Below, in pieces: positions 1 through 58,950 of a DNA stretch of 64,000 nt. Each line of letters starts with the position of its first letter. The stretch's first letter is position 1. Source of the stretch: an uncultured Acidobacteriota bacterium. Lineage in GTDB: Bacteria > Acidobacteriota > Blastocatellia > RBC074. Under the pieces are notes generated by a model. The model saw only the letters and a program-made list of their open reading frames with translations. It was not told where the DNA came from and made no database searches. The DNA is taken from the NCBI GenBank assembly GCA_963800895.1, contig CAWDDA010000022.1, positions 9,243-73,242 of the forward strand, in the 5' to 3' direction. Both the position numbers and the translations under genes were made by a program.

Positions 1-1737
1 GGTCGGTTACTGTTTTTTCTCGAAAGTTTTTCGAGCGCGTTCCCTTTCTCACGGCGGGAATGCCCTTGCGCTTCGTGTAGGCCTGCATCGGGAACCGGAA
101 ATAGCGCGGCTTCCACTGCTCGGCCTTCTGGCGGCCGTTCGTACCGTCGAGGAACTGCCGGATCACGTCCTTCTGCTGGCGTGCCGTCTCCTTGATGTAC
201 TGCGAGGCGATGGTCTTGCCCGCGATCTCCGCCATCATGGCGTTGATCGCCGGTTTGTCGCGCAGGAGCTCGAAGAAGGCGTCGTCCGCCGTCCACCACT
301 TGTCCATGTCCACACCAAGGATCAAGCCAAGGGCTTCCACCGCGGCGCTCCCGGCCGGGAGCGATTCCGCCATGATGAAGGCCAGCACGCGCAGCACTTC
401 CGCGTCCGTCATCTGCAGGAGGCGGGCGAAGAGGGTGGCGGCGTCTCCGTTATTCCGCTCCCCTAGAAGGAACTGTTCGTTGTCCTTCAGCCCCAGCATT
501 TCCTTCACCGCAGCCAGCTCCGCGTCGAAGGCAGTTCTTGCCGAACTGCCCGCAAGCGAAGCGGCAATGCTTCTCGTTGCCGTTCGCGCTCTGGGCTTCC
601 GGGCGCACGTCCCAGAGCCCTTCGGAGCTGATGACGCTCGCCGCGATGAGGCGCAGCGCCAGGAGCGGGGATTTCAGAAGCTCCACCCGCACGGCGTTCT
701 GCCGGTGCAGATCGACGTAGCGGATCGCGGCCTGAGACAGCTCCGGCTTGTCCGCCGAAGGTTCTGCAGCGTCCTCCTTGCCCTCAGCGGTCGCCTTCGC
801 CGCCAGCTTGTCGCGGCGGGCTGCCTCCTTCTCCTCGAGATAGCCTTCGTGGAATCCGACCGTGCCGTCGGTCGGCACAGGCGATATAGACCTTGCCGCC
901 CTTCGTCCTGCCGCGTTTCACCTTGTCGTGGGTCCAGAAGCCTTTCCCGATTTCCATGATGACGACGTCGCTCCACCCGGCTTCCAGATAGGCGGCCTGG
1001 CGGTGGATGATCTCCTGCGTCTGGAGCTTCCAGAATTTGTCGGCGTCATCGAAATACCGGTCCTCGCCGAAGAGGTCGGAGACGATGTTGCCGGGGTACT
1101 GCTCGAGAGGGAACAAGGCCGACGACACCGGAATTTCCGCGCCAAACAGCCACGCCTTCAGCTGCCACCCGGTCGGGGCATTGCCCTTCTTGTGCAGCTT
1201 CAGCCATTTCGTCTGCTGCGCGGGCGTCGCCAGGGTGAGAAGCTGCAGCGTCCCCGGCTCGATATCGTCCTTGCGGTAAGCGTCAAGGATCGCCGGGATG
1301 AGGCTTGCGATCGCCAGACGCCGGTTGACCAGCAATTCGGTCACGCCGAACTGGCTGGCAATGTCCGGTACAGTGCGTCCTTGCGCCTTGATCGCGGCGA
1401 AGGCCTCGAACTGGTCGATCTCATCCATGGGCAGGCGCGCGATGTTCTCGGCAAGGGAGGCCTCGATCGCTTTCGCGTCGTCGCCATCCTCCAAGACGCC
1501 GCACGGCACCGGCTCGGCGCGGCCGGCTTCGTCCCCCAATGCCCGCAGGGCTAGAAGGCGGCGCTGCCCGGCGATGACGTCATAGCCTTCGCAGTTCTGC
1601 CGCACCAGAAGCGGCTGAATGATGCCGATGCTGCGGATGCTGGCGATCAGCTCCGGCAGCTCCTCGGCCCCGCCGTGCTTGCGCACGTTCAGCGGCGAGG
1701 GCTTGAGCTGCGAGAGGTCGATATGTTGAAGTTTCAT
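1..1737 (-). pseudogene. ParB/Srx-like nuclease-domain protein of ICE/plasmid type, 3' end beyond window, interrupted by frame changes
   Basis: Reverse translation starts MKLQHIDLSQLKPSPLNVRKHGG...IIQPLLV...VIAGQRRLLAL (ParB N-terminal motif). The protein continues through three frames: ORF 784-1779, ORF 450-878, and an untracked frame reading ...LLQMTDAEVLRVLAFIMAESLPAGS...WKPRYFRFPMQAYTKRKGIPAV to position 1. Frame breaks lie near 870 and 530. Confidence 0.75.
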
Positions 1738-1825
1738 AGTGGTTCTCCTTGGTAAAAAGGTGCGGAATTGCACCGGCAAAAGCGCGGGTCACCGGGGAGG
1801 CGGCCGCGCTCTCTGCGCTGCAATC

Positions 1826-2151
1826 TCACCACAGGAGGATCGTGAGCACGCGGTAGGTTTTGGAAGGATCGGCAGGGTCTTCGCTGCCGGTGTTCATATC
1901 GGGGGAGGCGTAGTAGTCAATTTCCAGTAGATGCGCTGCCCCGCATGATCGAACGCACCGAAGTCGTGTTCGCCGTAGGGGTCGGCATCCTCGGTGAAGA
2001 CGCTGAACTCGAGCACCTTGTTAAAGATGATATTTTTCGCCTCAGGCGGCAGGCTGTAAATTCCGGCGGTGATCACGACAATTCCCGGGATGTCGCAGTA
2101 TCCGAAGCTGCTGCGGAATCGGTCGTTGAGGGATGCGATTTGATTGCTCAT
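1826..2151 (-). pseudogene. DUF3768-like protein, one frame break
   Basis: MSNQIASLNDRFRSSF...VVITAGI...DPYGEHDFGAF...IYWK fits the DUF3768 pattern from memory. After an apparent 1-nt loss in an A-run near 1925 the other frame continues IDYYASPDMNTGSEDPADPSKTYRVLTILLW to a stop at 1826-1828. The start overlaps the upstream stop (ATGA). Confidence 0.7.
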
Positions 2152-2681
2152 GGCGCACCCCCTTGTGCCGCTGCGGCGGCTTCCTCGCGCACGGTATCCA
2201 TGCCGATGAAGCCCCAGCAGGAGCCGATTTCCTCTCCTGCTGTGTCGCAGACACGTAGCCGTAGCACTCACGAAAATTCTGCCAGCTCGTGTATTCGGCG
2301 GCAATGGCGGCTGCGTATTCAGAGAGTTTGTCGTCGGTCTCCGTGCCGCTTCCCCATTCGGAGCGCTTCAGGGCGATGATGCCGACACGGCCCGGATCCA
2401 AGGGCAGTGAAAGGGATTGCTCTGTCCGACGATACATTGTGCCGGAATGGTCAAGTAGAGAAAGAGAGGTATTGCGTACCAATCGGCGGCATTCTCCTGT
2501 TCCCACGCCGCAACTTCGTCCGGGTCGCTGCCGCAAGCGCCGTCAGACAGATCGATGTAGCGGCGGTGAGGATCACGATGCGCAGAGCGTCATCGCAAAC
2601 TGACGGCATTTCGACATCCTGGTCGTGGTAGATGCGCGCGGTCATGCCGTGCGCAAGCTGAAGGGTATCAACGGGTGTCAT
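2148..2681 (-). pseudogene. Conserved hypothetical protein of the ICE-like module, at least 3 frame breaks
   Basis: Coherent peptide segments sit in different frames: MTPVDTLQLAHGMTARIYHDQD...DDALRIVILT / RRYIDLSDGACGSDPDEVAAWEQENAADWYAIPLFLY / DHSGTMYRR...DPGRVGIIALKRSEWGSG...AEYTSWQNFRECYGYV / CDTAGEEIGSCWGFIGMDTVREE. ATGA overlaps occur at both ends. Confidence 0.45.
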
Positions 2682-2903
2682 AGCGCACCGCCTTGCACGC
2701 TCGCGATAACGCGGCCGTTCATGTCGCGCAGCTCAACGCACGGCGCTTTCAGGCAGGCGGTCGCGAATCGTCCGCGGCGTCGCCATGTCGTGATGCAGGC
2801 TCTGATACTCGCCGCTTGCGCCGTAGATTTCGCGAATGGTGTAGGTAAGGCGGTGCCCGTCTTCGAAATTCCGAAAGGCACGTTGGTGTTTTTCGTCGGT
2901 CAT
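2678..2903 (-). pseudogene. Small hypothetical protein, one frame break
   Basis: MTDEKHQRAFRNFEDGHRLTYTIREIYGASGEYQSLHHDMA... continues in a second frame as ...TACLKAPCVELRDMNGRVIASVQGGAL. The stop overlaps the next start (ATGA at 2678-2681). Confidence 0.4.
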
Positions 2904-3851
2904 GATCGTTTTCCTTTGCTGTTGATTGACTTCGAACAGCAAAAAAAAATGCAGCCGGACCGAGCCGGGTCATCCAAGATCCTCTTCGTTTCGCCTTGCT
3001 CGAAACGAAAGGATCTCTGGAAATTGACGCGGCGAAGCGGACGGCTGGTACAATGCGAAGTTCGTAAGAAAGCACACCACGGGAGTAGGGCGTGGCGCGA
3101 AGCGCGCGGCATTGCGCCGGGCAGGCGGGGAATGCGGCTGCGCCGCCGCGCTTTCTCATTGCCGGTCGGGGGCTTGCGGGGTGCCCCCGCTGGAAAGGGG
3201 TGTGCTCGAGACTACAGGCTCGAGCCAGGGGGAAGGCTTTCCCCCCTTTAAGACGGTAAAAACCGGCCCTGTGGTACAACCGCTAAATGCGAATCAAAGA
3301 GCCAGTTCCGAACGGCCATATCAGTGAGATCGACCCGGAATGAGGTGTACTATCTCATGGATAAAACCACATCCGGTCCAATCATTAGTTGTCGGCTTCC
3401 TTCCTATTGTTCGTCGTCAGCGGTGCGAGTCAAAAGCCCTCCTACGATCCCGGAAGCCCTTTTTTTAACGCTCGGACTTTCTCTCCAGGTCACTATCGAA
3501 GCGAGAAAGCCCTACAAAATGCTGTCACAAAGCTCTTCCCGACTGGCACTCCAAAAAAGAATTAGGATTGTATTTCAGGCGATATCGCGGGGTTGTGCTC
3601 TTCGTCACAAAGCACGGCACTAACTAATTTGAGGATGTTTTTTCCAAGGCGCTGGCGCACCGAGCCGCATCTCTTCCCCAGGCCCTATCTCTCAGCCCGG
3701 CCGTGCACGCTCACGCCACCAACACTTGAACTGGATATTCGCCGCACAGGCGGGGTAAAATTCCTCCTGATGAAGGGCGCGCGGTTGTTGCGTTGCGCTT
3801 CCAGGCGGCGCGGCGACCCGGCCGGCCGTTATTCAAGAACAGGAGGCTCTC

Positions 3852-4226
3852 ATGGCAGCTCTCTGGTTCAGGACCGGCTCGACGATGATCTTCGACACCT
3901 TCCGGCCCTCGAAGCGCTTCAAGGCCGTCATGGCCGAACGCATGCAATCGGAGCGTTTCACCGGCATCGTGGTTAACGATTTCCGAGGTCACCGTGGAAG
4001 GGATGGCGGATGGACCGCGCTCCACCCGGTGTGGCGAAGCGACATGGACGGCGGGCGTCAGGAATTCGTCTTCGTCGTCATGTGTGCCGCCGACAGCGAG
4101 GATGTCGCGAAGGGCAACGCCGGTGACGTTCAAGCCATGCGTCGGCTGGAACGACGATCTGTGGCCGCAGTAGCGTCGTGCTGGCCACCATGTTCGGCGT
4201 CACGAAGGGCGAGATTTTCGCCCTAA
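3852..4226 (+). CDS. Hypothetical protein
   Basis: ATG is preceded by AGGAGG 6 nt upstream (caggaggctctcATG). I recognise no motif, and the ORF may itself be frame-damaged. Confidence 0.3.
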   Translation: MAALWFRTGSTMIFDTFRPSKRFKAVMAERMQSERFTGIVVNDFRGHRGRDGGWTALHPVWRSDMDGGRQEFVFVVMCAADSEDVAKGNAGDVQAMRRLERRSVAAVASCWPPCSASRRARFSP

Positions 4227-4245
4227 TACTAAATTTGTCGGGAAT

Positions 4246-4440
4246 GTGACCTTGTCCGAGGATTGGGACGCGGAGCATTTCTTCGTCGACTATCATGGCG
4301 GAAGGAATGATAGCGACGGAGAAGCTATAAGAGTGCTCTACGATGATCAGGAACGTGTAACAGAAATTATTGCTACATCATTTGGCGGATCAATAGGTGG
4401 ATATGACTTTCCAAACTTTTTCACAAAAGAGTGCCAATAA
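4246..4440 (+). CDS. Small hypothetical protein (64 aa) in a low-GC islet
   Basis: ORF only. Its composition differs from the surrounding GC-rich DNA, and I recognise no motif. Confidence 0.25.
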   Translation: MTLSEDWDAEHFFVDYHGGRNDSDGEAIRVLYDDQERVTEIIATSFGGSIGGYDFPNFFTKECQ

Positions 4441-5435
4441 TCGCTTCGGCTAGTGGTGCGCTGCATCCCGCCGCGAGGATAGGAGAAATGGCGACGACAA
4501 GGACCCAGCCTACATACCGACGCAAGACGAAATGGAGTGCGATCTTGAGGCTGCATGGCAGTTAGCGCTCAAGCTCCATGGCTGTGTCGAGTGTGCGAGA
4601 GTGGATTTCATCCAGCGCCTGCGCTTCATGGCGATGAACAAAAACAACGAGATCATGGGGCCTGTGACGCTGCCCCTGGATGAAAAGCAGGAGCCTCCCC
4701 ATGGAGAGGGACGGGATCAGCCGCATATGCGTGCGCTGTCAGACGCCATTGCCGCCCGGCGTGGGCTTCTTCAAGCACGGCACGGATGAGCTGGCTGACT
4801 TCAAGGACGATGCGGAATAGGCGGGGATGACCTCTGTTAAACTGAAAGAGGTGAGGCAACCATGAGCGAGGACAAAAAACCGGAACATCTGAAAGGATGG
4901 CTTGATCGCCCGCCGCTGTCGGACTGGTCGGAGGAGGAGCAGGGCTTCGCATTTGATGCATTTCGGATCCCTCGCCGCGCTCGATCACGACAAGTCGATT
5001 TACTGCGCCCGGCATTTCGTGGAGTTCTTTGAGGAAGCGAAGCAGCCAGCGGGAATTGCCCTGGGAGAATCCATGGCGCTGAGAGGCAAATTCTTCGCGG
5101 TATCCTTGGACGGATTCCCTGCCTTCGCCTGAGCGGCTTCGCGCAGGCAGGCGGGACCGCTGGCGGGGTCGATGGGGTAAGATTGCCCGGGCGGTTTAGC
5201 GGGCTTGTACCACTCAAGGAGTATATCGAGCATCGCCCAATAAAATTCCGCGTCGGCTGTTCGCCCTTCGCGGTCTGCCAGCTCGGCGCTGTGCGCGGCG
5301 CGATCGCAGGCGAAAAGGACCGTATTCGTCAGCGGAGTATTTCGCGGCCTCCTCGGGGGTCGTGATTCCCAGCTCGCGGTATTCAGCGGAGCGTCGGGCA
5401 TGGCAGGGCCTCGGGCTGCGATTGGTGGTTATACC

Positions 5436-6061
5436 CTATTTGGACGGCGGTTCTGCGCGCAGAACGGAGGTCAAGCCGTTTGTCCATGCATCTTTAAGCT
5501 CACGGGTGGCGAAGTGCCGATAGTTGCAGTTCGTCTGGTTGGGGCCGTTCACGGCAAAGTCGCGCCCGGCCTCGAATGCTTCTTTTGTTGACTGGTCGGC
5601 CGGGTCTATGTGCCCGGCAATCGCGCGCAGGTCGGCGGCGGAAAATTCGCCGTGGAGCCTCAGTGTGACCGTCTCCGGCGTCCATTCGATATAGGGGACG
5701 CTGCACGACAAGCTGCCGTCGCTCTGGACTACGTTTCTTTTCTCTAAAACGGTGTCTGTCATGCGAGACTCGGGCTGCGGCTTGAACGGCTTCACCTTGA
5801 TCTTCGCGGCATGCTTCTCAGCCTGCGCCAGGTCGTAATCCATCTGCATCCCAAGCCAGAGCTCGGGGCTGCTGCCGAACGCCTTGGACAGGCGGATAGC
5901 CATTTCCGGGCTGACGCCGTTCTTGGCATTTACAAGGTTGCTGAGGGTCAGGCGGGTGACGCCAAGCACCTCGGCTCCTTTGGTGATGCTAAGGCCCAAC
6001 GAGGCTTCAGGCAATCCTCTAAAACATGTTCGCCGGGATGCGGCGGGTTCTTCATACGCAT
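5436..6061 (-). pseudogene. higA: HigA-family XRE antitoxin with an in-frame ~95-aa C-terminal extension, one frame break near 6005
   Basis: AGGAG RBS then MRMKNPPHPGEHVLEDCLKP, a frame change, then LGLSITKGAEVLGVTRLTLSNLVNAKNGVSPEMAIRLSKAFGSSPELWLGMQMDYDLAQAEK (HigA HTH signature). The ORF continues without a stop into an unrelated segment (MTDTVLEKRNVVQSDGS...). Confidence 0.65.
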
Positions 6062-6072
6062 GGTTCTCTCCT

Positions 6073-6290
6073 TCAATGGTAGTCGATCAAGTCAACGTCA
6101 ATCGTTACCTAATCTTCGCCAGGGCCGCCAATTCCGCACAAGCTCCTTGAGACCCTTTCCAACAGCTGCAGCACCCACTTCCGTACGGGTGAGCCAGTTC
6201 AGTCGGCCCTGGAAGGGGCGAGATGGCAAGGCAGCAGAAGATCCGAATTGAGGTATTTGCCGACTGAGCTGGACCCACGGGTGTGGACCA
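6073..6290 (-). pseudogene. higB: HigB/RelE-like toxin remnant, heavily frame-damaged
   Basis: It lies immediately upstream of higA in the usual toxin-first higBA order. The reverse frame ends ...VTIDVDLIDYH-stop, with the TGA inside the higA RBS region, resembling the ...VEIVDYH C-terminus of HigB. Upstream pieces are only weakly HigB-like and scattered over three frames. Confidence 0.3.
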
Positions 6291-6359
6291 CTGGATCGGA
6301 TTCTTAGTTGAGAGCGGGGCCGTTCCTCTCTTCTGACCTTGCTAGGTCCGGAGGCGAGC

Positions 6360-6840
6360 ATGCGCACAGCCATCGTCAACCTCGACAGGATCGTCACCGG
6401 CTCTCTCACCGAGCCTTTCGCGCCGGGCGACGGCTGCTGATGGAGGACGGCCGGATCACCGCCATCGGCACCCTGCCGGCCGACAAGGTCGCGGCGTGCG
6501 ACGTGGTCGTCGATGCCGGCGGCACGATCGCGATCCCCGGCCTCATCGACGGCCAGGTCCACTTCACCTTCGGCGACTACACGCCGCGCCAGAAGGTCGT
6601 CGGCTGTCTCGAAAGCTACGTCCATAGCGGCACGACGACGTCGAGCTCGGCGTCGGAAGTGCACGTTCCAGGCCGGCCCAAGGACCCGCCGGCATGAAGC
6701 CCTGGCGCTGGCCGCCCGTGCCTGCTTCCTCACCTATCGGCCTGGCGGCATGCGCGTCCATGCCGGCTCGATCATCCTCGAGCCCGGCCTGACCGAGGAC
6801 TACCTGAAGGACGTCGCCGCGCGGGGCCTGTCGACCACCT
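6360..6840 (+). pseudogene. Amidohydrolase-family protein, two frame breaks and 3'-truncated
   Basis: MRTAIVNLDRIVTGSLTEPFAPGD / RLLMEDGRITAIGTLPADKVAACDVVVDAGGTIAIPGLIDGQVHFTFGDY...SASEVHVPGRPKDP / MKALALAARACFLTYRPGGMRVHAGSIILEPGL. The G-x-IPGLID-x-H-x-H-like metal-binding N-terminus is present. Recognisable sequence ends near 6840. Confidence 0.55.
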
Positions 6841-6999
6841 TCACGGCGGTTGAGGCGGGAGCGCGCGGCTCAGTGAGCGGCGCCGGCGAAGTCCTGCGGC
6901 AGGCGGCATTGGGCAACAGCGCGCTGTTTCGCCGTGCTCGCGGGCGATGGCGATCGCCGCATCGAGGCTCTCGGGCCGGTGGAACGTGAAGCCCATCGC

Positions 7000-7856
7000 C
7001 TATCCCGTCGCCCGTCCAATGAAGTCTCGAACGGTTCGAAGGAACTTGGCGTTCTCTTCCCGCATGAGCCGATGGCCGCTTTCCTCGAAGATCATCTGCT
7101 CGGCGCCCGGTATGCCTTCACGATCTCGTCGGACGCGTCGGGCGGCGCGATCCTGTCGTGGCGCCCAGTGAGGACGAGAGTCGGAGCCGTGATCCCGGCC
7201 AGCCGGGATCTTACGTCGTAGGTCTTCCGGTCCTGCGCGAAGAACCAGTTCAGCATGTCGATATCGGCGATCGGCTTGAAGCCGCCCGGCGGCGTCCGCT
7301 TCGGGTCGTATTCGTAGAACGACGAGAGAGCGGCGAAGACGCGATCCAGGTCCTCGGCGGACTCGACTGTCCCATGCCGGAGGCGCGCTAGCGCCTCGCG
7401 CTGCTCGGGCGAGGCGATGTCGTGCAGGCGGGAAAGGCCGCGTTCCAGCGCTTCGTTGCTGGCCGCCGTCGCGCACGGGATGAGACCCGCGACGCTGTCC
7501 GGATAGGTCACGGCATAGGTCAGCGCGAGCATGCCGCCGAACGACATCCCGAACACCACGATGCGACCGAGACCCAGTGCCTGGCGCAGGGCCTCGAGAT
7601 CGTCGGCCATGTTGGCCAGCGTGCGCGTCTCGACCGGTGGGCGCGACGAGCGGCCGTTGCCGCGATGGTCGACGAGGATGAGCTGCGCCATGTCGGCGAT
7701 CGGGGTCAGCCACGGCACAAACTGCGAGTGGTCGATGCCCGGGCCGCCATGGAGGGCGACGACCACGGGCTTATCGACCAGCTCGTTGCCTCGCGCGCCA
7801 AGGCTGGAGCCGTGGACGTCGAAGAACAGCTCCACGCCGTTGACCGCGATGCGCAT
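7000..7856 (-). pseudogene. Alpha/beta hydrolase (proline iminopeptidase-like), one frame break near 7105
   Basis: MRIAVNGVELFFDVHG...VVALHGGPGIDHS...VDHRGNGRS...VFGMSFGG (GxSxG nucleophile elbow)...LVLTGRHDRIAP. The C-terminus continues in a second frame (IPGAEQMIFEESGHRLMREENAKFLRTVRDFIG). Confidence 0.75.
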
Positions 7857-7860
7857 CGCT

Positions 7861-8352
7861 CAGCGCGCCTTGTTCCGGGTCAGGACGGTGTCCTGTGAAG
7901 CCTCTTCGAATCTCATCGTCCGGCGCGTGCATTGAACAATGATGGTGCCATATCTTCCACACCGGATTGCCGGCGCCGTCGTCGCGTATCAGCACTTCGG
8001 TCTCGCGGACCCTGAACCACCTGTCCGGGGTGCCCGGGGGAAGCTGCCCGCCCGGCTTCGCGACGCGGCGGATGACGGCCTCGTGAGAGACCCACGCCAT
8101 GTCGCCCCGCACCTCGATCCGCATGTCGATGACCTCCAGTTGCGGGAGGCCGTAGTCGCGGCCGATCAGCTCCCAGAGCTGGGTCAGCTCATCGACCGAC
8201 CAGTAGGTATGCCCATTGAGGTTGTACTGCAGGAGCTTGTCTCCCGACGCAAAGCACGCGCGCATGCGCGGGATGTCGAGATTGGTGTTCGCAGCCCACC
8301 ACTCGTCGTGGATGCGTTTGACTTCGGCGATATCCTCTTCAACGGTCGGCAT
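7861..8352 (-). pseudogene. SnoaL/NTF2-like protein, probable frame break near 7905
   Basis: AGGAG RBS; MPTVEEDIAEVKRIHDEWWAANTNLDIPRMRACFASGD...WKIWHHHCSMH. The alternative frame ends ...FEEASQDTVLTRNKAR-stop at 7861, just before the next gene start. The tracked ORF otherwise runs 90 nt into that gene. Confidence 0.5.
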
Positions 8353-8369
8353 ATTCGAACTCCTGAACC

Positions 8370-9394
8370 CTAAGACTTCACGCGCGGCCAGACATCCTTG
8401 CCGAGCGTCACCAGTGTCTGCTCGGGGTCGAGCCTTCGCAGGGCAGCGGCATGACGATGAAGGAGTCGACGCCGGCGGCCTTGAGCTCGTTCATGTGCTG
8501 CACGACCTCGTCGGCCGTGCCGGCCAGGGTGAAGGCATCGACGTGGCGGTCGGTCACCAGCGGCAGCAGCGGCGTATAGGGTGCGGCGCCATCGGCATAA
8601 CGGACGTTGGCGAACGGCGCGATCTGCTCGTCCGTCAGGGTCAGGCCCTGCTTCTCGGCGGTCATGAACTTCAGCCGGCCCGCCGCCAGCATGCGCGCCA
8701 CACCTAGCCGCACGCCATCGCGCGCCTTCTTGCCGTCGGGCGCCAACGCAGGCATTGAGGCGCAGCCACCACCTTCACCGCGGCGGGATCGCGGCCCTTG
8801 CGCTTGGCGCCCTCGGCCAGGATGGCGCGGAAGGCCTTGACCTCCTCGACATTGCCGCAGCCTTCCATGATCGCGCCATCGGCGACGCCGCCGGTCATGC
8901 GCTGGCCGAGCGGCCCGTTGCTCGCGACATAGACGGGAATGTCGGCCCGCACCGGCTTGAAGGAGAGCTTGCCGTTGTTGAAGCCGACGACGTCGCCGTG
9001 GAAGTCGACCGACTCGCCCTTCAGCAGCGCGCGCATCGACCTCGATCGCCTCGCGGATCGCGGCGGCCGGCTTCTTGCGCACGATGCCGAGCTCGGCGAA
9101 GCCCGAGATGCCGGCGCCGATGCCCAGGATGGCGCGCTGGTCGGAGATCTCGTCGAGCGTGGCGATCGCCATCGCCGTCAGCGCCGGATGGCGCGCGAAG
9201 GGATCGGTGACGCAGGTGCCGAGCTTCACCCTCGTGGTATGCTGGGCGAGGATCGCCAGGGTCGAATAGACCTCGCGGTAGAAACGCTCGTCGGCCACCC
9301 AGAGCGTGTCGTAGCCGTTGGCCTCGGCAAGCTTGGCGCGCTCGACCATTTGCGCGATCGGCACATTGCCCAGCATCAGCAGTTCGAGAGACAT
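8370..9394 (-). pseudogene. Luciferase-like (LLM class) flavin/F420-dependent oxidoreductase, three frame breaks
   Basis: MSLELLMLGNVPIAQMVERAKLAEANGYDTLWVADERFYREVYSTLAILAQHT... The middle lies in ORF 8704-9036 (VDFHGDVVGFNNGKLSFKPVRADIPVYVASNGPLGQRMTGGVADGAIMEG). The tail is ...TADEVVQHMNELKAAGVDSFIVMPLP, then LDPEQTLVTLGKDVWPRVKS-stop in a third frame. Confidence 0.75.
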
Positions 9395-9406
9395 GTCAGC
9401 AACTCC

Positions 9407-10207
9407 TCACGCGGCTTCATTCCAGGACGGCGCCGAGAAGGCGGCGAAGCGCGTCGCCGTCCAGTACTCGTCGTCGAATTTCATGCCGACCTCGCAGCCG
9501 GCGCGCATCAGCAGCGTGACGATGCGCGACTTCTCGTTGGCCGAGATCATGGCCGCCGAATAGGAGATGCAGATCGCGACCCGCTCGCCGCTTTCGCGGT
9601 CCTCGACGCAGACCGCAATCGACTCGACGCCGGGCAGGCTCTCGTCGGTCGCCTGCGACCAGCCCTTCTCGCGCACCAGCGCGAGCACGGCAGGAGATCG
9701 TCGACGGTTTGCGGCGCGTTGGGCGACGGCGGCTGCAACGGCGCCGGATAGAGCGCGCGCACCGCATCGTCATCGAGTCGCGCCAGCATCGCGCGGCCGG
9801 TCGAGGAGCAGAAGGCCGGCAGCCGGTCGCCGGGCGAGGTCACCACGCGCAGCGGCTTGCTGCCCGGCCGCATCCGCAGGCCCAGCACATCGGTGCCGTC
9901 GAGGATCGCGACGTAACCCGTGTGGCCGGTCGCCTTGGCGATCCGCGCCAGCGCCTCGTCGGCGACCACGCTCAGGGTCGAATTGACCCTATGACGCCGC
10001 GAGGTCTCGAAGATCAGGTTGCCGACGCAGTAGCCCGAGGGCTGCATCGGTGGTGGCGAGCAGGCCGGTCTCGGCCATGGCTTTCAGCAGTCGCGACGAG
10101 GAACTCTTGGGCAGCGCCAGAAGCTGCGCGACTTCGGTCACGGACAGCACGCTGCGCTCCGGCGTGAACAGCCGGAGCACGCGTGCGACGTTGCCGACCG
10201 AATTCAT
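9407..10207 (-). pseudogene. IclR-family transcriptional regulator, two frame breaks
   Basis: MNSVGNVARVLRLFTPERSVLSVTEVAQLLALPKSSSSRLLKAMAETGLL (winged HTH) / GYCVGNLIFETSRRHRVNSTLSVVADEALARIAKATGHTGYVAILDGTDVLGLRMRPGSKPLRVVTSPGDRLPAFCSSTGRAMLARL / ...LALVREKGWSQATDESLPGVESIAVCVED. It is divergent from the ABC transporter genes. Confidence 0.75.
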
Positions 10208-10385
10208 GATCACGATCTCCACGTTCCATTTTTCCGAAGCTATCGACCTATAATTGGAACGCGCAACTCGTAAATGGCCTAAATCCTGCACACAGTCCTG
10301 CTGCATGCGTCGTGTGTTCCAGAAATCGACGATCGATTGACAAGACTGGAACGCTATGGACTGAATGAGGCGGGGCTCTGGAGGG

Positions 10386-12027
10386 ATGATGGTCATGGGG
10401 ATCAAGGCGGATCGGCGCACATTCCTGAAACTTTCGTCGGGAGCCGGCGCGCCGGCGCTGGGCGGCTTGGGCGCGCCTGCCGGCGCGGGCGCAGGCCGGC
10501 TCGACGCTGACCGTCGCCTGGGACACCGACATCGACAGCCTCGACCCGCACGTCTTCAAGTCGGTCGGCGGCTATGCCGTGCAGTGCAACCTCTACGACC
10601 CGATCGTCTCGTGGAAGGTGCGGCCGGTCGAGGGCACCAAGGGCCTGTCGCGCTCCTTCCCCAACGAGTTCGAGGGCAGCCTCGCCGAATCCTGGACCTT
10701 CGAGCGCGACGGCGCGACGATCGTGCTGAAGGTCCGGCCGGGCATGAAGTTCCCGAGCGGCCGGCCGGTCGATGCCGCGGCGCTCAAGTATTCGCTCGAC
10801 CGCGCGCTGCAGTCGCCGGGCTACATGCGGTTCATCATGCCGCGCATGATCCAGGTCTCCAAGCCGGAGGAGATCGTGGTGCGCGATCCATGCACCATCG
10901 CCCTCGACATGAAGGGGCCGACGCCGCAGCACGATGGTGCTGAACTTCCTGTCGCTGATGACCATCACCGCGCTCGATCCCGAGCTGGTGAAGCCGAACG
11001 CGACCGAGAAGGACCCGTGGGCCGCCGACTGGGCCAAGCGCAATGCCGGCGGGCTCCGGCCCCTACACGCTCGCCGCCAACACGCCGGGCGTCGAGGTCG
11101 TGCTCGAGGCGCGCAAGGACCATTGGCGCGGCAAGCCCGCGTTCCAGAAGATCGTCCTGAAGTTCGTGCCCAACGAGGCCGACCGCGTGCTGCTGCTGAA
11201 GCGCAAGGCGGTCGACCTGGTGATCGGCCGGCCGGGCCTGTCGCCGCGCAACATCAAGACCTTCGAGAACGAGAAGGACTTCCGCATCGTCACGGTGCCG
11301 GACACGACCTGCCACTGGCTGGCGATGAACCAGACCAAGAAGCCGCTCGACAACGTCAAGGTGCGGCAGGCGATCAACTACGCCATCCCGATCGCCGCGA
11401 TCGTGCCCAACGTGCTGATGGGCTACGGCTCGGCCATGAAGTCGCCGGTGCCGGCGCTGACGCCCGGCCACGACGCCAACCTCTCGCCCTACAAGTACGA
11501 TCTCGACAAGGCGCAAGGCGCTGATGAAGGAGGCCGGCGTCACCACGCCGGTCACGCTCGACCTCGCCGTGCGCATCGGCTGGCAGCCGCACGAGGAGGC
11601 CGCGGTGTGGATCCAGCGCGAGCTCGAGAAGATCGGCTTCAAGATCAACATCACGCGCCAGACCGACGCCACCTTCCGCCAGCTCGCCACCAAGGGCGAC
11701 TTGCAGCTTTCGATCGAGACCTGGCAGTCGTGGGTGAACGATCCGTTCTTCCACATGGTGCCGCTGTTCCATTCGACCTCGAAGGGCACCAACACGGCGT
11801 TCTACAGCAACCCGGCCCTGGACAAGATCCTCGACGAGAACTACCACGAGCCCAACGCCGAGAAGCGCCTGGCGGCCGCCAGGGCAGCCCAGAAGATCGT
11901 CATCGACGACGCCGTCTGGGGCATGCTCTGGTACGACAACTGGACGCGCGTGATGCGCAACGACCTGGTCGGCGTCGAGAAGCGCTGGGACACCTTCGAG
12001 CGCTTCACGTCGCTCAAGACCGGCTGA
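10386..12027 (+). pseudogene. ABC transporter substrate-binding protein (family 5, peptide/nickel type) with Tat signal, four +1 frame breaks
   Basis: GGAGGG RBS; MMVMGIKADRRTFLKLSSGAGA (twin-arginine motif). The reading frame steps 0>1>2>0>1 near 10490, 10925, 11050 and 11515, and each segment is typical SBP_bac_5 sequence (...AESWTFERDGATIVLKVRPGMKFPSGRPVDAAALKYSLDR...; ...HWLAMNQTKKPLDNVKVRQAINYAI...; ...AFYSNPALDKILDE...). Confidence 0.8.
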
Positions 12028-22697: not shown

Positions 22698-22791
22698 ATT
22701 TGACAAAGATTTGAGTAGAGGATAACGAAACGTTTATGCAGGACAGCTAGACTTACCGTCATTAAGGTGCCTAGTCCTGTGTTTTCGAAAT

Positions 22792-22822
22792 GCCTCTCAT
22801 CTCCCGGTGAGAGGCTTTTTTT
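22792..22822 (+). terminator. Rho-independent terminator
   Basis: GCCTCTCA-tctcccgg-TGAGAGGC followed by TTTTTTT. Confidence 0.7.
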
Positions 22823-23016
22823 AAGAAGGGGTCGGGGGTCGGGCGAGCCGGGGGCCGGGAATCAGAATATTTTCCATTTGTCATTTTAGATTTGTCATTT
22901 GTTATTGATTCCGATTCGTCCTCAAGGTGAATGACAAATGAGAAATGACAATTGGGAAATCCTCTACTTCCCGATCCCCCGACCCCCGACCCCCGACCCC
23001 CGGCCCCCTCTTCTTC
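22823..23016. repeat. Nested hairpin element E3 (outer G-rich heptamers, inner TGTCATT heptamers, no conserved core)
   Basis: AAGAAGGGGTCGGGGGTCGGGCGAGCCGGGGGCCGGG ... CCATTTGTCATTTTAGATTTGTCATTTGTTATT ... AATGACAAATGAGAAATGACAATTGG ... CCCGATCCCCCGACCCCCGACCCCCGACCCCCGGCCCCCTCTTCTTC. Confidence 0.9.
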
Positions 23017-32408: not shown

Positions 32409-32556
<148 letters not shown>

Positions 32557-53071: not shown

Positions 53072-54683
53072 TCAGAAAGTAATGCCAAAGGGTCCGATAT
53101 GAGAAGACCGATTATTGAGTGAAGTTCGCAAGGCGAGCTCGAGCGCCTGGCGTACGTCCTCGGGTGCCAGCACTGCATCGACAAATCCACGCGATGCTGC
53201 AAAGCGTGCGTCGAGCTGCCGCTCATAATCAGCTCTTACACGGTCCATATCGGCGCGAAGATTCCTCATCCGGCTGACGACCCTGCTCTTTCAGCTTCTC
53301 GAGCTGCGACGAGAAGAGTGCCATTACCGCCGATTCTCCTTCCATTACTGCCATTCGCCCTGTCGGCAGTGTGAAGATAAAATCCGGGTCAAATCCCTGT
53401 CCCGCCATTGCATAGTATCCAGCGCCACTCGCGTGATTCACCGTGATCACAATCTTCGGCACCATCGCTGTCGACATCGCTTCGACAAACCGCGCACCCG
53501 CTCGAATAATTCCTGAGGCTTCAGCTTCTGGTCCGACCATGAAACCGGCAACATCCTGGATAAAAAGGAGCGGAGTTCCGTGCCGGTTGCAGGTTTCTAT
53601 GAAATAAGCCGTCTTCTCTGCGCCGTCAGTGTAGATGATGCCGCCGAACTTTGGCTGTTGACCCTGACGGTTTTGGATCAATCCGCGGCTGTTGGCTATC
53701 ACGCCTACTGTGATGCCGCGGATTCGGCTCATTCCGGTAATCATCTCCAGTCCGTAATAAGCCTGAAACTCATCAAAGCTATCCTCATCGACGATACAAT
53801 CAAGCATTGCCCTGGCGTCATATGGCGCGCGGTGATCAGCCGGAAGGATATCGTAGAGATCTGTTGCGGGCCGCTTCGCCTCCCGCGCCTTTGCATTGCT
53901 GTCGACGCGCGAGCAGCCTGGTGGAAGCTCGGAGACCAGAGAACGGATACGCTCGATGCAATCGCGATCATTCTTTTCAAGATAGTGCGCCACACCAGAA
54001 ACTGCATTGTGCATCCGCGCACCGCCGAGTGTTTCACTATCAACCTTGCGTCCCGTAGCGCCCTTCACCAGGTTCGGCCCGCCCAATCCCATGAATGACG
54101 TTCCTTCTACCATGAGAATCACATCCGAGAGAGCTGGCAGATAGGCTCCGCCTGCGACGCATTGACCCATTACCGCCGCGATCTGAGGAACCTTCAGATA
54201 GCGTCGCATGATCGAGTTGTAATGGAATATCCGCGCGGCTCCGTACTGGCCCGGAAAGACGCCGTCCTGGTATGGAAGGTTAACTCCGGCTGAGTCGACA
54301 AGATAGACAATCGGCACGCGCGAGCGCATCGCAATTTCCTGCGCGCGCAGAATCTTCCTGATCGTCTCTGGCCACCACGAGCCTGCTTTTACAGTAGCGT
54401 CGTTGGCGACAACTATTGACTCACGACCGGCGATGAGACCGATTCCGGTAACGACGCCAGCGGCCGGAGCTTGACCCGCATATTCGTCATAGGCAATAAG
54501 AAGGCCAATCTCCTGGAACGGGGAATCAGCATCAAACAGCACTCGCGTTCGCTCACGTGCTGTCAGTTTGCCCTGCTGATGCTGCCGCTCGATCTTCTCG
54601 GGGCCGCCCCCCAGACGCAGGCGCTCTTCAATAGTCTTGAGTTCGCGGACGAGCCCTTCCAAGTGTGCTCGATTCTCAGACAT
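53072..54683 (-). pseudogene. Acyl-CoA carboxylase carboxyltransferase (beta) subunit, one frame break near 53270
   Basis: MSENRAHLEGLVRELKTIEERLRLGGGPEKIERQHQQGKLTARERT...ANDATVKAGSWWPETIRK...VYLVDSAGVNLP...GGAYLPALSD. The C-terminus continues in ORF 53072-53269 (RADYERQLDARFAASRGFVDAVLAPEDVRQAL). Confidence 0.85.
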
Positions 54684-54723: not shown

Positions 54724-54926
54724 TCAGGGGTTAGGGATCAGAGGTCAGGGGCCAGTGGTATAGGACCAAAGCATTTGTCATTTATCATTTGTCATTCGCT
54801 TGGCTTGGACTCAAATAACAAATGACAAATGACAAATGACAAATGCTAAATGTCTTGGTCCTATACTCCTGATCCCTAACCCCTAACCCTTCCCCTGACC
54901 CCTGATCCCCGACCCCCGATCCCCTC
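54724..54926. repeat. Three-tier nested hairpin element E11
   Basis: Outer G-rich heptamers (TCAGGGG TTAGGGA TCAGAGG TCAGGGG... vs ...CCCTAACCCCTAACCCTTCCCCTGACCCCTGATCCCCGACCCCCGATCCCCTC). A unique 11-bp middle stem TATAGGACCAA/TTGGTCCTATA. Inner TGTCATT/AATGACA heptamers. It abuts the stop (54927-29) of the minus-strand TonB receptor gene. Confidence 0.9.
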
Positions 54927-57900
54927 TTAGAAAACAATCTTCACCCCAAACTGCATGACTCTGGGTCCGCCGATTGTGTTGCTGATCGTGCCAAAGTCAG
55001 TGAGATCCTGGAGGTCATTGGCAGGATTTGCGAAGTTGGCTTGATTGAAGATGTTGAAAATATCCCATCGGAACTCAAGTCCGACGCGTTCAGTGATGGG
55101 CGTGTTCTTCGAGAGACCAAAGTCGAATCGCTTCTGAGACGGTCCTCGGAGGACGTTTCGTCCCAGGTTTCCGAAGCCGAGATTCCCCGGATAACCTCCC
55201 GCAGCAGTCAAAGGCGAGCAGAGAACCGACGCGTTGAAATAACCTGTCGTGATGTCGCTGTTTTGTTGACGCAGTTGGTCGATAGTCCCACAGAGTGATG
55301 GCCGGCCGAATCCGAGACGGTAAAGACCACCAGCTCCAAGACGGAGTGTTCCGTACTGGGAAACATTGCCGACTTCCGGTTCGGCTGAGAAGATCGAGAA
55401 TGGGCTACCCGACTGCACCTGTGCGAACCCGGAGATCTGCCAGCCCTTGAGAAACCCAGAATCGCCGAGCGGAAGCTGATAGACAAAGCTCGCGCTGAAC
55501 CGGTGAGTACGATCGAAGTCCGACACGGCACGATTGCTTTTCAGATTCCGCTGATCTCCCTGGACCACGAATCCAGTGTTAGGTGTATCTGGCTTCCCGC
55601 TTCCAGCCGTGCTTCCCGGATCCGACGAAATGTAGTCCATCGACTTTGACCAGGTATAGAACGTGTTGAACGAGAGTCCTTTTGAGAACCGCTGAGTGAG
55701 TCCCAGTTGCAGGCCGTGATAAATCGAGTTGGCAGAGGACTGCAGAAGTAAAGCTTCCGGCACGTTGAACCCAAGGATTGACCCGCGGGCTTCAAACCCT
55801 AGTAAGGCGCCTGCGGCGTTGCTTAGATTGTAGTCGAGTGCACCACCGAGAGCAGAGTTGGGGAAACCGAACGCGATTCCGCGCCCCCGCTCCCGCTGTG
55901 TGGATGCGGCGCGCAACGGCCCGTTAAGGACATTTGGATTGCCCGTTGACTGAAGCTGCTTCTGATATGCGGCATCGTATGCATCATTGAATCTTTTGAA
56001 GATTGCGTCTGGCGCTGCCGAGCTGTTCAAGTCGTAGCCCTGATTGAACGCGATTGCCTGTAGGAGCTTTGTTCCCTTTGTCCCCACATAGCGCGCTTCT
56101 ACCATCATGTTCTGAGTGAGCTCGTACTGGACTCCAAGATTCCATTGCTGTATGTAAGGTGTCCTAAGATTGCGGTCGACTGACCGGAATTCGAACGTCT
56201 CCGCGACATTGCCCAGCGCCGGAAGACCGGTTGCCAGATCAACCGGATTGTTGGTTCCGTCCGATTGCCGGGTCACGGGCGTGCCGTCGCGAATTACGTA
56301 TGTGCCACCGGTCTGATAAACCATCCGGTTCGGAAGATAGCGATTGAACGGAAGATTGACATCCTGCTGCGAGAAGGCGGTAGTGATCGGAACCTGACGA
56401 GTCGGAGCCGTCACTTCGATTTCCCTCAGGAAGGGATAGTTGCTGAAAATCGTGTTAATGAATGCAGCTGAAGGCCGGTCAAAAAAGAATCCGTACCCTC
56501 CGCGAATAACCAGCTTGTTGCTGCTGAACGGCGAGAATGCAAATCCGAACCGCGGAGCAAAGTTGTTAAGATCCTGACCGTTCAGTGTGTGGTCATTGTC
56601 TGCCTTCAGTGATGTAGCAATCGCGCCGTTGATCGCCGCGAACTCTGTATTTTGCACATTTGCCGGCACGAGGAACGACGCTAAAGGGTTTTCCGGGTTC
56701 GTCAAACCTTCGAAGTCGAAGTTGCCGATCCGCCCGATTCTTCTCTGTAGGCCAGCCGAACCACTCCCAACGGAGTCCCAGGTTGAGGGTCAGGCGGTTG
56801 GAAGCTTTCCAGTCTGTTGCGATATAGGCGCCAAGATCCTGAAAGCGAAAACTCTTGTCAGTAATCCCAAACTGTGTGTCACCTTCGGTCGCACGGCCTG
56901 CAAGAAACTGTGTGAAGTTTTCCCACTTTTCAAATTCAGTGGCCTGTTCTTCCGGCAAGTTCGAATCGTAGCTATGATGTTTGTACTCAAATCCAAATCG
57001 ATAGACGTTCGCTCCACGCGAGTAGGTGACGTTGTCAGAAAAGCTTAGCGTCTTCTGCTGCCGGCGGTTGAACGAGTCATTTGGGCCCGCGAAGGACAGA
57101 TTCGAGAGATTGTTTCGAAAGATATAGTGGCCGAGTCTTCGCGTTGCATTGCTGTCGTCGAAGAACACTGCCGGATTTGGAATCCCAACAGATTCATTTG
57201 TGATCCCAAGAAACGGTTCATCAAGACTACGCGTGTTGTTGAGAAAGAAGTAACCGAAACGAGCTTCATTGATTACCGTCGGACTGAAAGTATGAATGTC
57301 GGATAGGGCAAACGTCCGATTCCTGTCATTCCGCAGAAGTGTGACCGGTGATGCCAGGCTTGAAGGATCGGGAAATGGATCAAATCCCGGGAAATTCGTA
57401 AAGAAAAATACTCCGCTCAGGCGGTTCGCCTCGCTCACTTGTCCATCAAGCCGTGTCGTGAATTGATTTTGCTCGAACTGTGCCGGTTGAACATTCCGCT
57501 GCCGTATCAACGGGTTGCCTCCAGTCCAGGGTGCAACGGTCGTATCCGAGCCCACGCGCGCACCACCCGGGCGCGGCCCTGGAATGAAAAACCCGCCGGT
57601 GACGGGGTTGATTAGATTGAGTAAACGTACGCTCGTCGGTGAAATCTGTGCTTCTGTGAGAGGGAAGGTTGGGTTCAATTGTCTGAAAGCGGCTACGAGA
57701 TTTGCTGGGGTTCGCTCGCCCTGAATCAGAGCGAGAGCCTCGGGAAGAACGCTGATGCTCGATGCAGTCGGAACAAACCCTGTGTCCGCTTTCGTGTATT
57801 GGTAACCGCCGAAGAAGAAGAATTTGTCCGCAATCACGGGGCCGCCTACAGTAAATCCGCCTTCATGCCGTCGCGCCTTTGGCTTGTCGATCCCGTCACG

Positions 57901-58746
57901 ATTGTAGAAGTAATCGTTCGCATTCAGAGCCTCGTTCTGAATGTAGTAATAAAGCGAGCCGTTAAAGGTGTTTCCTCCGCTTTTGGTCACCAGCTGGAAA
58001 TTTCCGCCGCCTGACCTTCCAGTAGAAGCATCGTAGAGGCTTGTCTGTAATTTCACTTCAGACAGCGTTTCGGGCGCTGGTGAAATGTTGTCGCTGAACG
58101 AGCCTTCGTTGGTTGTCAAATTGGTCGCGTCGATTCCATTGAATGTCAGACTCGTGCTCGTCGTTCGCGTTCCGTTCACCGACGGTGAGATATTGCCGGT
58201 TCCATTAGTAAGGACCGGCGGCAGATCGGAACTGACCCCAGCATCGGAAGAAAGCAAGTGTGTGAAGCTCCGCGTCGACGTGGGCAGCTCGACCAGCTCT
58301 TTGCCGCTCAGTTGGCGAAAGGTCGTAGCGGTCGTTGGTGTCACGAGGGGTGCCGTATCAGTAATATTTACCTCGATTGCGACTTCACCGACCTGAAGGT
58401 CCGTATCGAGGACGCGCGGGACTGAAGCTTCTATCGCAACGTCTTCACGAACGGCTCTTTTAAAGCCGGCAGCTTCGATTGCGATCTTATAAATGCCAAC
58501 CGGCAGAACTGTTATTACCCAGCGCCCCTCGACGTCGGCGGTGGCTGTACGTGTAAGGCTCGTTGCCTGATTCACTGCCGCAATCTTAGCACCCGCCACT
58601 GCTCCGCCGCTGGCGTCTCGAACTGTACCACTCAATGATCCGGTTGGGCCGGACTGACTGAAGACCGAAGCACACAACAAAGCTAAAAGCGCGAAGGCTG
58701 ACAGCGTTCGACTACTCTGGACGAACTCAAAACCACTTCTTTTCAT
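54927..58746 (-). pseudogene. TonB-dependent receptor with N-terminal carboxypeptidase-regulatory-like domain, one frame break near 56735
   Basis: AGGAGA RBS; signal MKRSGFEFVQSSRTLSAFALLALLCASVFS; GSLSGTVRDASGGAVAGAKIAAVN...EGRWVITVLPVGIYKIAIEAAGF. The barrel continues across the break (…WEWFGWPTEKN / GRIGNFDFEGLTNPENPLASFLVPA…) and ends with the terminal F (GVKIVF). Confidence 0.8.
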
Positions 58747-58950
58747 GGATATTTCTCCTGGCGTCGCGGACTCCTGTGCGCTTTTGGTCGGAGACCGCAA
58801 CCTGAGTTTCAAAAATGCTGATTAATGCTTCTCAAAAGGCTGGTGAATCACCAGACGGCCTGCGAGATTAAACCCCTAAGTTTCGAGACTAGCAGTGGAG
58901 TGTTAAACGCAATTTAGGTGACCGTTAATTCTGTCTTAACAAGGCCGCTC

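Follow-up and report, generated by a model that had tools for sequence, protein, structure and literature searches.

Many bacterial genomes are enriched in heptamer repeats, and to our knowledge the IVS elements and the PF05635 proteins have stood without explanation for decades. The 23S IVSs of Coxiella and Leptospira are inserted in helix 9, 25 or 45 of the rRNA, their long terminal inverted repeats form a stem and some of them contain an S23p (PF05635) ORF in the loop; the Coxiella IVS combines an AGAAGA motif, tandem GACAGAT heptamers in variable number and an S23p ORF, and its stem is cut by RNase III (PMC4990558). Inverted arrays of the GGGAATC heptamer were described in Xanthomonas campestris and X. 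axonopodis, where G-rich units, about four in an array, form convergent pairs on opposite strands at less than 50 nt from stop codons and are depleted between divergent genes; the part of that article which presents the arrays treats one class with a focus on G-quadruplexes, and it describes no nesting of classes and draws no link to S23p or REP (Rehm et al. 2015, PMC4692102). In Geobacter metallireducens paired sites of 3-5 tandem 7-9-nt repeats lie on opposite strands at variable distance, some of them in two classes at once; they were read as IHF/HU binding sites, and no nesting order, gene link or turnover was reported (Aklujkar et al. 2009, PMC2700814). Finally, the REP, BIME and REPIN elements are extragenic high-copy hairpin doublets after genes, made of imperfect palindromes of 20-40 nt whose 5' tag (GTAG or similar) is conserved; a Y1 (RAYT) transposase gene is bordered by copies of the same repeat, and REPINs were reported to insert into or beside other REPINs (PMC3116915, PMC2817692, PMC3333891, PMC3733652).

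In this article we describe E11, a palindrome of 203 nt at positions 54724-54926 of a 64,000-nt stretch of DNA (the window), and the family of hairpins to which it belongs. Four main heptamer classes were distinguished in the genome and are designated G (TCAGGGG), W (TCAGTGG), S (GTGCTGA) and T (ATTTGTC); A and B stand for the units REP-A and REP-B, X>Y means that module X lies outside and module Y inside, and G000 and G001 are this genome and that of a sister species. Since G000 is a draft MAG (27 contigs, 74% complete), the exact copy numbers in E11 rest on the assembly. The first-pass annotation had read the palindrome as G-rich heptamers outside, a perfect 11-bp stem and T-class heptamers inside, and all of this was found in the sequence, by TRF, which recovered the arrays, and by an inverted-repeat search, which recovered the arms. 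The outer left G arm (54724-54758) consists of five heptamers (TCAGGGG, TTAGGGA, TCAGAGG, TCAGGGG, CCAGTGG); because the AAGAAG outer end typical of the class is missing here, the short left arm may have been truncated. It is followed by the left half of the middle stem, TATAGGACCAA (54759-54769), 7+4 nt in register with both arrays, and by the inner left T arm (54770-54796; AGCATTT, GTCATTT, ATCATTT, GTCATT). The locus-specific loop CGCTTGGCTTGGACTC of 16 nt (54797-54812) has no significant similarity to 81 other T-hairpin loops. The inner right T arm (54813-54854) contains six AAATxxx units (AAATAAC, three AAATGAC, AAATGCT, AAATGTC), exceeding the left arm by one unit at the junction and by another beside the loop, and after it come the right half of the middle stem, TTGGTCCTATA (54855-54865), a perfect complement of 54759-54769, and the outer right G arm (54866-54924) with about 8.4 C-rich units (CTCCTGA, TCCCTAA, CCCCTAA ... 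CCCCCGA, TCCCC), then TC and a stop codon. As a single strand E11 folds at -103.1 kcal/mol versus -51.7 +/- 4.4 for its shuffles (z = -11.6), and the sense-strand arm holds at least eight G tracts. Both T arms are colinear with those of the T-class master cassette, the innermost GTTATTT unit included.

With the 23S IVS this hairpin has in common the long terminal inverted repeats forming a stem, and its family has the AG-rich motif (AAGAAG instead of AGAAGA) followed by tandem heptamers in variable number, with a PF05635 ORF in the loop of the full-length members. It differs in its location, since E11 lies between two protein-coding genes and not in a 23S rRNA helix, its loop of 16 nt is without an S23p/PF05635 ORF, and the present elements are mostly ORF-less, occur in hundreds of copies and four heptamer classes and are nested in one another. 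The outer arms of E11 are tandem G-rich heptamers, 5 and about 8.4 units and thus above the two required for an array of the Xanthomonas type, convergent and on opposite strands; what sets the present family apart from those arrays, as far as their published description goes, are the several classes and their nesting. It resembles the REP elements as an extragenic, high-copy inverted doublet, and REP-A and REP-B of this genus are themselves of the REP kind and sit in the centre of heptamer shells; however, E11 contains neither a REP-A nor a REP-B unit, its arms are tandem heptamers, and the arrays do not flank Y1 genes. In contrast to MITEs, which have a target-site duplication and an autonomous element with a transposase, the flanks are inverted (AAGAAG/CTTCTT) and not direct, and the full-length members encode a four-helix bundle, for which we know of no transposase function.

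Genome-wide 805 period-7 arrays were recognized, with 241 inverted pairs in which both arms belong to one class; all 241 have their G/T-rich arm on the 5' side, and none has the opposite polarity. The G, S and W arrays carry AAGAAG/CTTCTT outer ends and usually surround an inverted pair of the 25-nt REP-A unit TATGGAGTTCAAGCTTTAGCTTGCT, which is present in about 600 copies in G000, about 670 in G001 and few elsewhere. T arrays were found alone, around REP-A, inside REP-A, or within pairs of the GTAG-tagged REP-B. The nesting counts are 39 for G>A, 28 for S>A, 14 for W>A, 3 for T>A and 1 for A>T, and there are 9 G>T composites according to strict criteria and about 20 according to loose ones, by eye. 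The reverse order was sought throughout the genome, and G, S or W inside another module gave 0 cases and no T>G composite; since the counts never place G, S or W inside, the G-outside, T-inside order is a genome-wide rule. A single-layer version is present for every module. The T hairpins have a conserved order of variant units, common to the T-class master cassette and to orthologous T hairpins. Their loops are unrelated save for a few small groups, those of E11 and of E3 (below) being unique, and one loop is common to three composites on contig C23, in both orientations. A TTGACATCCTG motif beside two elements was considered as a further module and set aside, having only 4 occurrences in the genome. 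The other array pairs with long loops (C15:48274, C23:164752, C17:99414) enclose ordinary ORFs or, at C17, no convincing ORF, and no mobility gene was seen in them.

Two further elements of the window, E3 and E5, had been cited as parallels of E11, and rightly so. E3 (22823-23016) is a second G>T composite, with G outside and T inside, and its left arm has the family junction GGAATCAGAATATTTTCCATTTG; in E5 (32409-32556), a T-class hairpin, only the left side bears a G-rich stub, GGGGGCGGGGATTGG. A canonical intrinsic terminator at 22783-22812 (GCCTCTCATCTCCCGGTGAGAGGC then T7) directly precedes E3, which was therefore added downstream of the terminator and did not replace it.

The 11-bp stem of E11 is unique, as had been noticed: the 11-mer occurs twice in the 4.26 Mb genome, both times in E11's own arms. 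Its standing as a separate tier fared less well. In most G>T composites the junction reads TCAGGGA TCAG/AAYATTT RTCATTT, and that of E11, TATAGGA CCAA/AGCATTT, has the same length (7+4 nt). Because the stem is exactly 11 nt long and, like the family junction, stands in register with both arrays, it is probably not an independent layer; the three layers are present in the sequence, and the middle one is probably either a family junction that has diverged or what is left of a REP-A stem, and not a mobile layer of its own. The second of these origins is kept here as a possibility and not as a finding, because a REP-A profile built from 530 copies gave no match in E11 and a gapped alignment of the REP-A consensus was significant on the right arm only (score 23, shuffle p = 0.005, above 30 other junctions; left arm 16.5, p = 0.13).

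It was also claimed that copy number drifts independently on the two sides of E11, where the right G arm is indeed the longer one. Genome-wide, a difference of one unit or more between the two arms is seen in 36-59% of the pairs. Nevertheless, arm similarity is higher within than between elements, both in the G class (0.919 vs 0.882, p = 5e-6) and in the T class (0.932 vs 0.882, p = 6e-9), and at five orthologous sites the arrays have switched from W to G on both arms around the same core. The arms are therefore not fully independent in their drift, and those of one element change partly in concert.

The origin of the heptamer classes was approached through the genes which they enclose. G000 possesses four PF05635 genes, all in loops of inverted heptamer pairs and one per class (loci L289-L292): C26:448926 in the G class, C25:147475 in a W-like class, C12:3825 in the S class and C15:13442 in the T class. 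All four proteins match TIGR02436 ('four helix bundle protein') and weakly the DGR protein Avd, and their identity to the G-class protein (W 60%, S 30%, T 24%) ranks them as heptamer similarity does. At the best PF05635 loci of 28 other genomes of the family inverted period-7/8 arrays stand on both sides in 21, each with its own unit, versus 1 of 249 control short genes under the same test. The closest solved structure is Xanthomonas campestris XCC0516 (PDB 2GSC), and a GGGAATC array abuts this PF05635 gene too, overlapping its start codon (Rehm et al. 2015 supplement, repeat #15, PMC4692102); the account of the arrays in that article does not discuss the link. From the PF05635 gene in the loop of each class, the loci of the relatives, the layout of the Coxiella IVS and the colinearity of the T arms we conclude that each layer of E11 is a copy, without the ORF, of an IVS-like cassette, the two layers belonging to different classes.

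REP elements offered another candidate for the mover of the arrays. Five PF01797 (Y1 transposase) genes are present (C19:87572, C13:87708, C19:17801, C25:306868, C15:303336), each flanked by its own, different REP family (copy numbers 8-81), so that the genome hosts at least seven REP families; heptamer arrays flank none of the five. A RAYT-like gene (HYH ... YIHHNPV) has REP-A pairs on both sides in G001 (locus L045, 1195-2000), its homologue in G000 (C25:269115-269700) has REP-B-like flanks, and both are read in two frames. As the Y1 genes are flanked by other repeats and the RAYT-like genes accompany REP families and not heptamer arrays, RAYT was rejected as the enzyme moving these arrays.

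G001 is syntenic with G000 (median protein identity 87.8%), and 1.03 Mb of it was compared; elements were mapped by both flanks, sites were called empty by length and fold, and the direction of the exchanges is unpolarised in this comparison of two species without an outgroup. About 77% of the element sites are occupied in both species, and the architecture is alike at only about 30%. Of 89 multi-module G000 elements, 26 have a counterpart of the same architecture at the G001 site and 26 one of a different architecture, 16 face some other hairpin and 20 face an empty site; with the species interchanged, the corresponding numbers are 25, 30, 3 and 17. Within the compared 1.03 Mb no G>T composite is common to both species. 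Seven G>T composites were mapped: four face G>A, two another hairpin, and one was scored empty by the automatic classifier, with a W-type arm visible in the sister sequence. G>T stands against G>A, with flanks and G shell alike, at C26:271015, C26:274633 and C25:206162 of G000, and in the pair G001 C26:67.2k versus G000 C26:246291. Two G>T composites face shells holding a hairpin of the CGCAGAG type. Exchanges of the same kind were found in other shells: S>REP-B versus S>REP-A, W>A versus an empty W hairpin shell, a T hairpin versus the same T hairpin with a REP-A pair replacing its loop, and, at C25:75974, G>REP-A>T in G000 versus G>REP-A>another palindrome in G001; the last element is three-tiered as E11 is, and its innermost part differs between the species. 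In further cases an entire layered element (W>A, G>A, S>A) stands opposite an empty site, for example a complete S>A element at G000 C26:278134-278260 versus a spacer of 1 nt at G001 C26:35325. The first GTGCTGA unit of this S>A element supplies the TGA stop codon of the upstream gene. Two types of element seen in G001 (C4:78336-78569 and C26:157580-157907) are not among the main classes of G000, namely hairpins whose arms consist of CGCAGAG/CTCTGCG and whose ends are (GAA)n, and a REP with the core CACGAGCCGCGAAGCGTGCGAGTC.

The modules are thus separable, the shells persist while their centres are exchanged, and in this lineage elements do become nested by arriving in the centre of a hairpin. 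The simpler versions for which a search at orthologous loci of related genomes had been recommended do exist, as the same G shell with another core and as single-layer modules, and the proposal of modular, element-within-element assembly is supported for the family. For E11 itself the order of events is a matter of inference, because no orthologue of its locus was found in any collection searched: the junction of its two neighbouring genes was absent elsewhere among 31 relatives, metagenome contigs and GTDB genomes. G001 lacks the E11 region, and more distant homologues of the receptor gene beside E11 (see below) end in plain terminators followed by other genes. In a related MAG (locus L144, 4800-4900) the receptor homologue is followed by a long AT-rich palindrome with arms of GACGAAAT-like repeats, a different kind of hairpin in the same relative position.

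The account which we favour, with moderate confidence, is that E11 represents two nested gene-less hairpin cassettes, a G-class shell with a T-class hairpin inside, from a family with PF05635-bearing full-length members and persistent shells with exchanged cores, and that the T hairpin arrived in a resident G shell. According to this model the hundreds of short hairpins would be ORF-less derivatives of PF05635 cassettes, whose layout is that of the 23S IVS, an AG-rich end, then heptamers, then the ORF. The shells would outlast the age of the species at their intergenic sites, and the contents of their centres, which may be a T hairpin, a REP doublet, some other palindrome or nothing at all, would be inserted, excised or replaced. 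E11 would most likely have originated at the 3' end of the receptor gene by the entry of a T-class hairpin into the middle of a G-class shell already resident there, perhaps by way of a G>REP-A>T intermediate of which the 11-bp stem could be the remnant, and unit slippage and outer truncation of the left arm would have followed. Against this account, we know of no nuclease or transposase activity of PF05635 proteins by which the parts could be moved, and G001 has many arrays but a single PF05635 gene, which is decayed and lies between S arrays, (AGTGCTG)14 and (CAGCACT)21.

The most serious alternative, in our judgement unlikely, is that E11 arrived as a ready-made G>T composite, or was copied as such by gene conversion through homologous G arrays, without stepwise nesting on the site. 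The junction GGGATMAGAAYATTT is found on 19 arms in G000 and on 1 in G001, the rest of the family being essentially without it, and the modal G-to-T register, present in 17 of 36 arms versus about 5 expected by chance, is kept on both arms of E11; such a pattern would suit the spread of finished composites, as would the whole layered elements facing empty sister sites, down to the 1-nt spacer, and the three C23 composites with one loop. However, no donor can be named for E11, since its junction and loop are unique in the genome, and the mapped G>T composites face G>A (4 of 7) or another hairpin (2 of 7), which indicates change inside a resident shell.

The genes around E11 bear on a second alternative, in which the structure would be kept mainly by selection as an RNA signal (a substitute of a terminator, an RNase III site or a stabiliser of the mRNA) and the nesting would be incidental. 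Both flanking genes are on the minus strand. E11 begins 2 nt past the TAA (54929-54927) of a TonB-dependent-receptor-like gene, of which the C-terminal part (54927-56705, ending in ...GVKIVF) adjoins it, and an acyl-CoA carboxyltransferase gene (53229 to about 54683) has its ATG at 54683, 40 nt beyond the left end of E11. The upstream receptor gene consists of two overlapping ORFs in different frames (54927-56705 and 56593-58812, minus strand), owing perhaps to a sequencing error or a frameshift. In the carboxyltransferase gene a truncation or frameshift may have affected the 3' end, because the open frames of its orthologues run to about 550-600 codons and its alignments to them end at residue 475 of 485. 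The GC content is 63-68% over most of positions 1-12000 of the window (58-59% at 2-6 kb) versus 51-57% in the remainder.

Such a role in RNA would agree with the closeness of E11 to the stop codon and with the intrinsic terminators which the homologous receptor genes of relatives carry at its position. Elements start at a median of 13 nt after stop codons genome-wide, and, by the crude ORF calls of the census, they are enriched between convergent genes (30% vs 17%) and depleted between divergent ones (12% vs 18%), 88% of the classifiable elements lying in non-divergent spacers. IVS stems are cut by RNase III (PMC4990558), and by analogy the long stem of E11 might serve as an RNase III site or protect the 3' end. 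Against it, E11 is not the short GC-rich stem followed by a U tract of an intrinsic terminator: its stem is followed by CCCCUGAUUUGACAUCC without a U tract, scans for promoters and terminators at E11 gave no match, and Rfam returned no family at threshold, only sub-threshold matches to generic microRNA-precursor hairpins. Selection for an RNA of one strand is not detectable in the 204 elements between same-strand genes, because the sense and antisense strands fold equally well (106 vs 96 more stable, p = 0.48; G-U pairs 455 vs 467), and the contents of the sites turn over between the species. We consider this reading improbable for E11.

Purely local growth, in which one continuous 7-nt array would have expanded by slippage with its unit type changing along its length and without any foreign insertion, is very improbable. 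The 7-nt register, which on both sides is kept from the G units through the 11-nt stem into the T units, would fit it, as would the difference of exactly one unit between the arms of E11 at the junction and the in-place switches from W to G; nevertheless, slippage would not recreate the conserved order of variant units which the T arms have in common with the master cassette and with orthologous T hairpins, and at orthologous sites the cores are swapped wholesale. An artefact of assembly at a repetitive palindrome, conceivable in a 27-contig, 74% complete draft, has a negligible chance, as it is opposed by hundreds of consistent copies and by the same architectures at orthologous sites of an independently assembled genome.

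Returning to the nested cassettes, the results link heptamer repeats, IVS elements and PF05635 proteins with each other, through one paralogue per class in this genome and through the arrays at 21 of the 28 loci of relatives, compared with 1 of 249 control genes. Tentatively, the heptamer hairpins could represent a widespread, so far unrecognised mobile cassette with PF05635 (S23p/Avd) as its signature gene, each paralogue recognising its own 7-nt repeat, of which the 23S IVS would be the special case residing in rRNA, and the gene-less shells would be long-lived intergenic 'sockets' in whose centre other palindromic elements, such as REPINs and cassettes, would preferentially land and be exchanged. 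This raises the question whether each four-helix-bundle protein binds the repeat of its own class, be it in DNA or in RNA. For intergenic DNA it is an unusual mode of evolution that palindromic shells persist while their centres can be exchanged, and this mode bears on the choice of targets by REPINs and on the remodelling of the 3' ends of bacterial genes.
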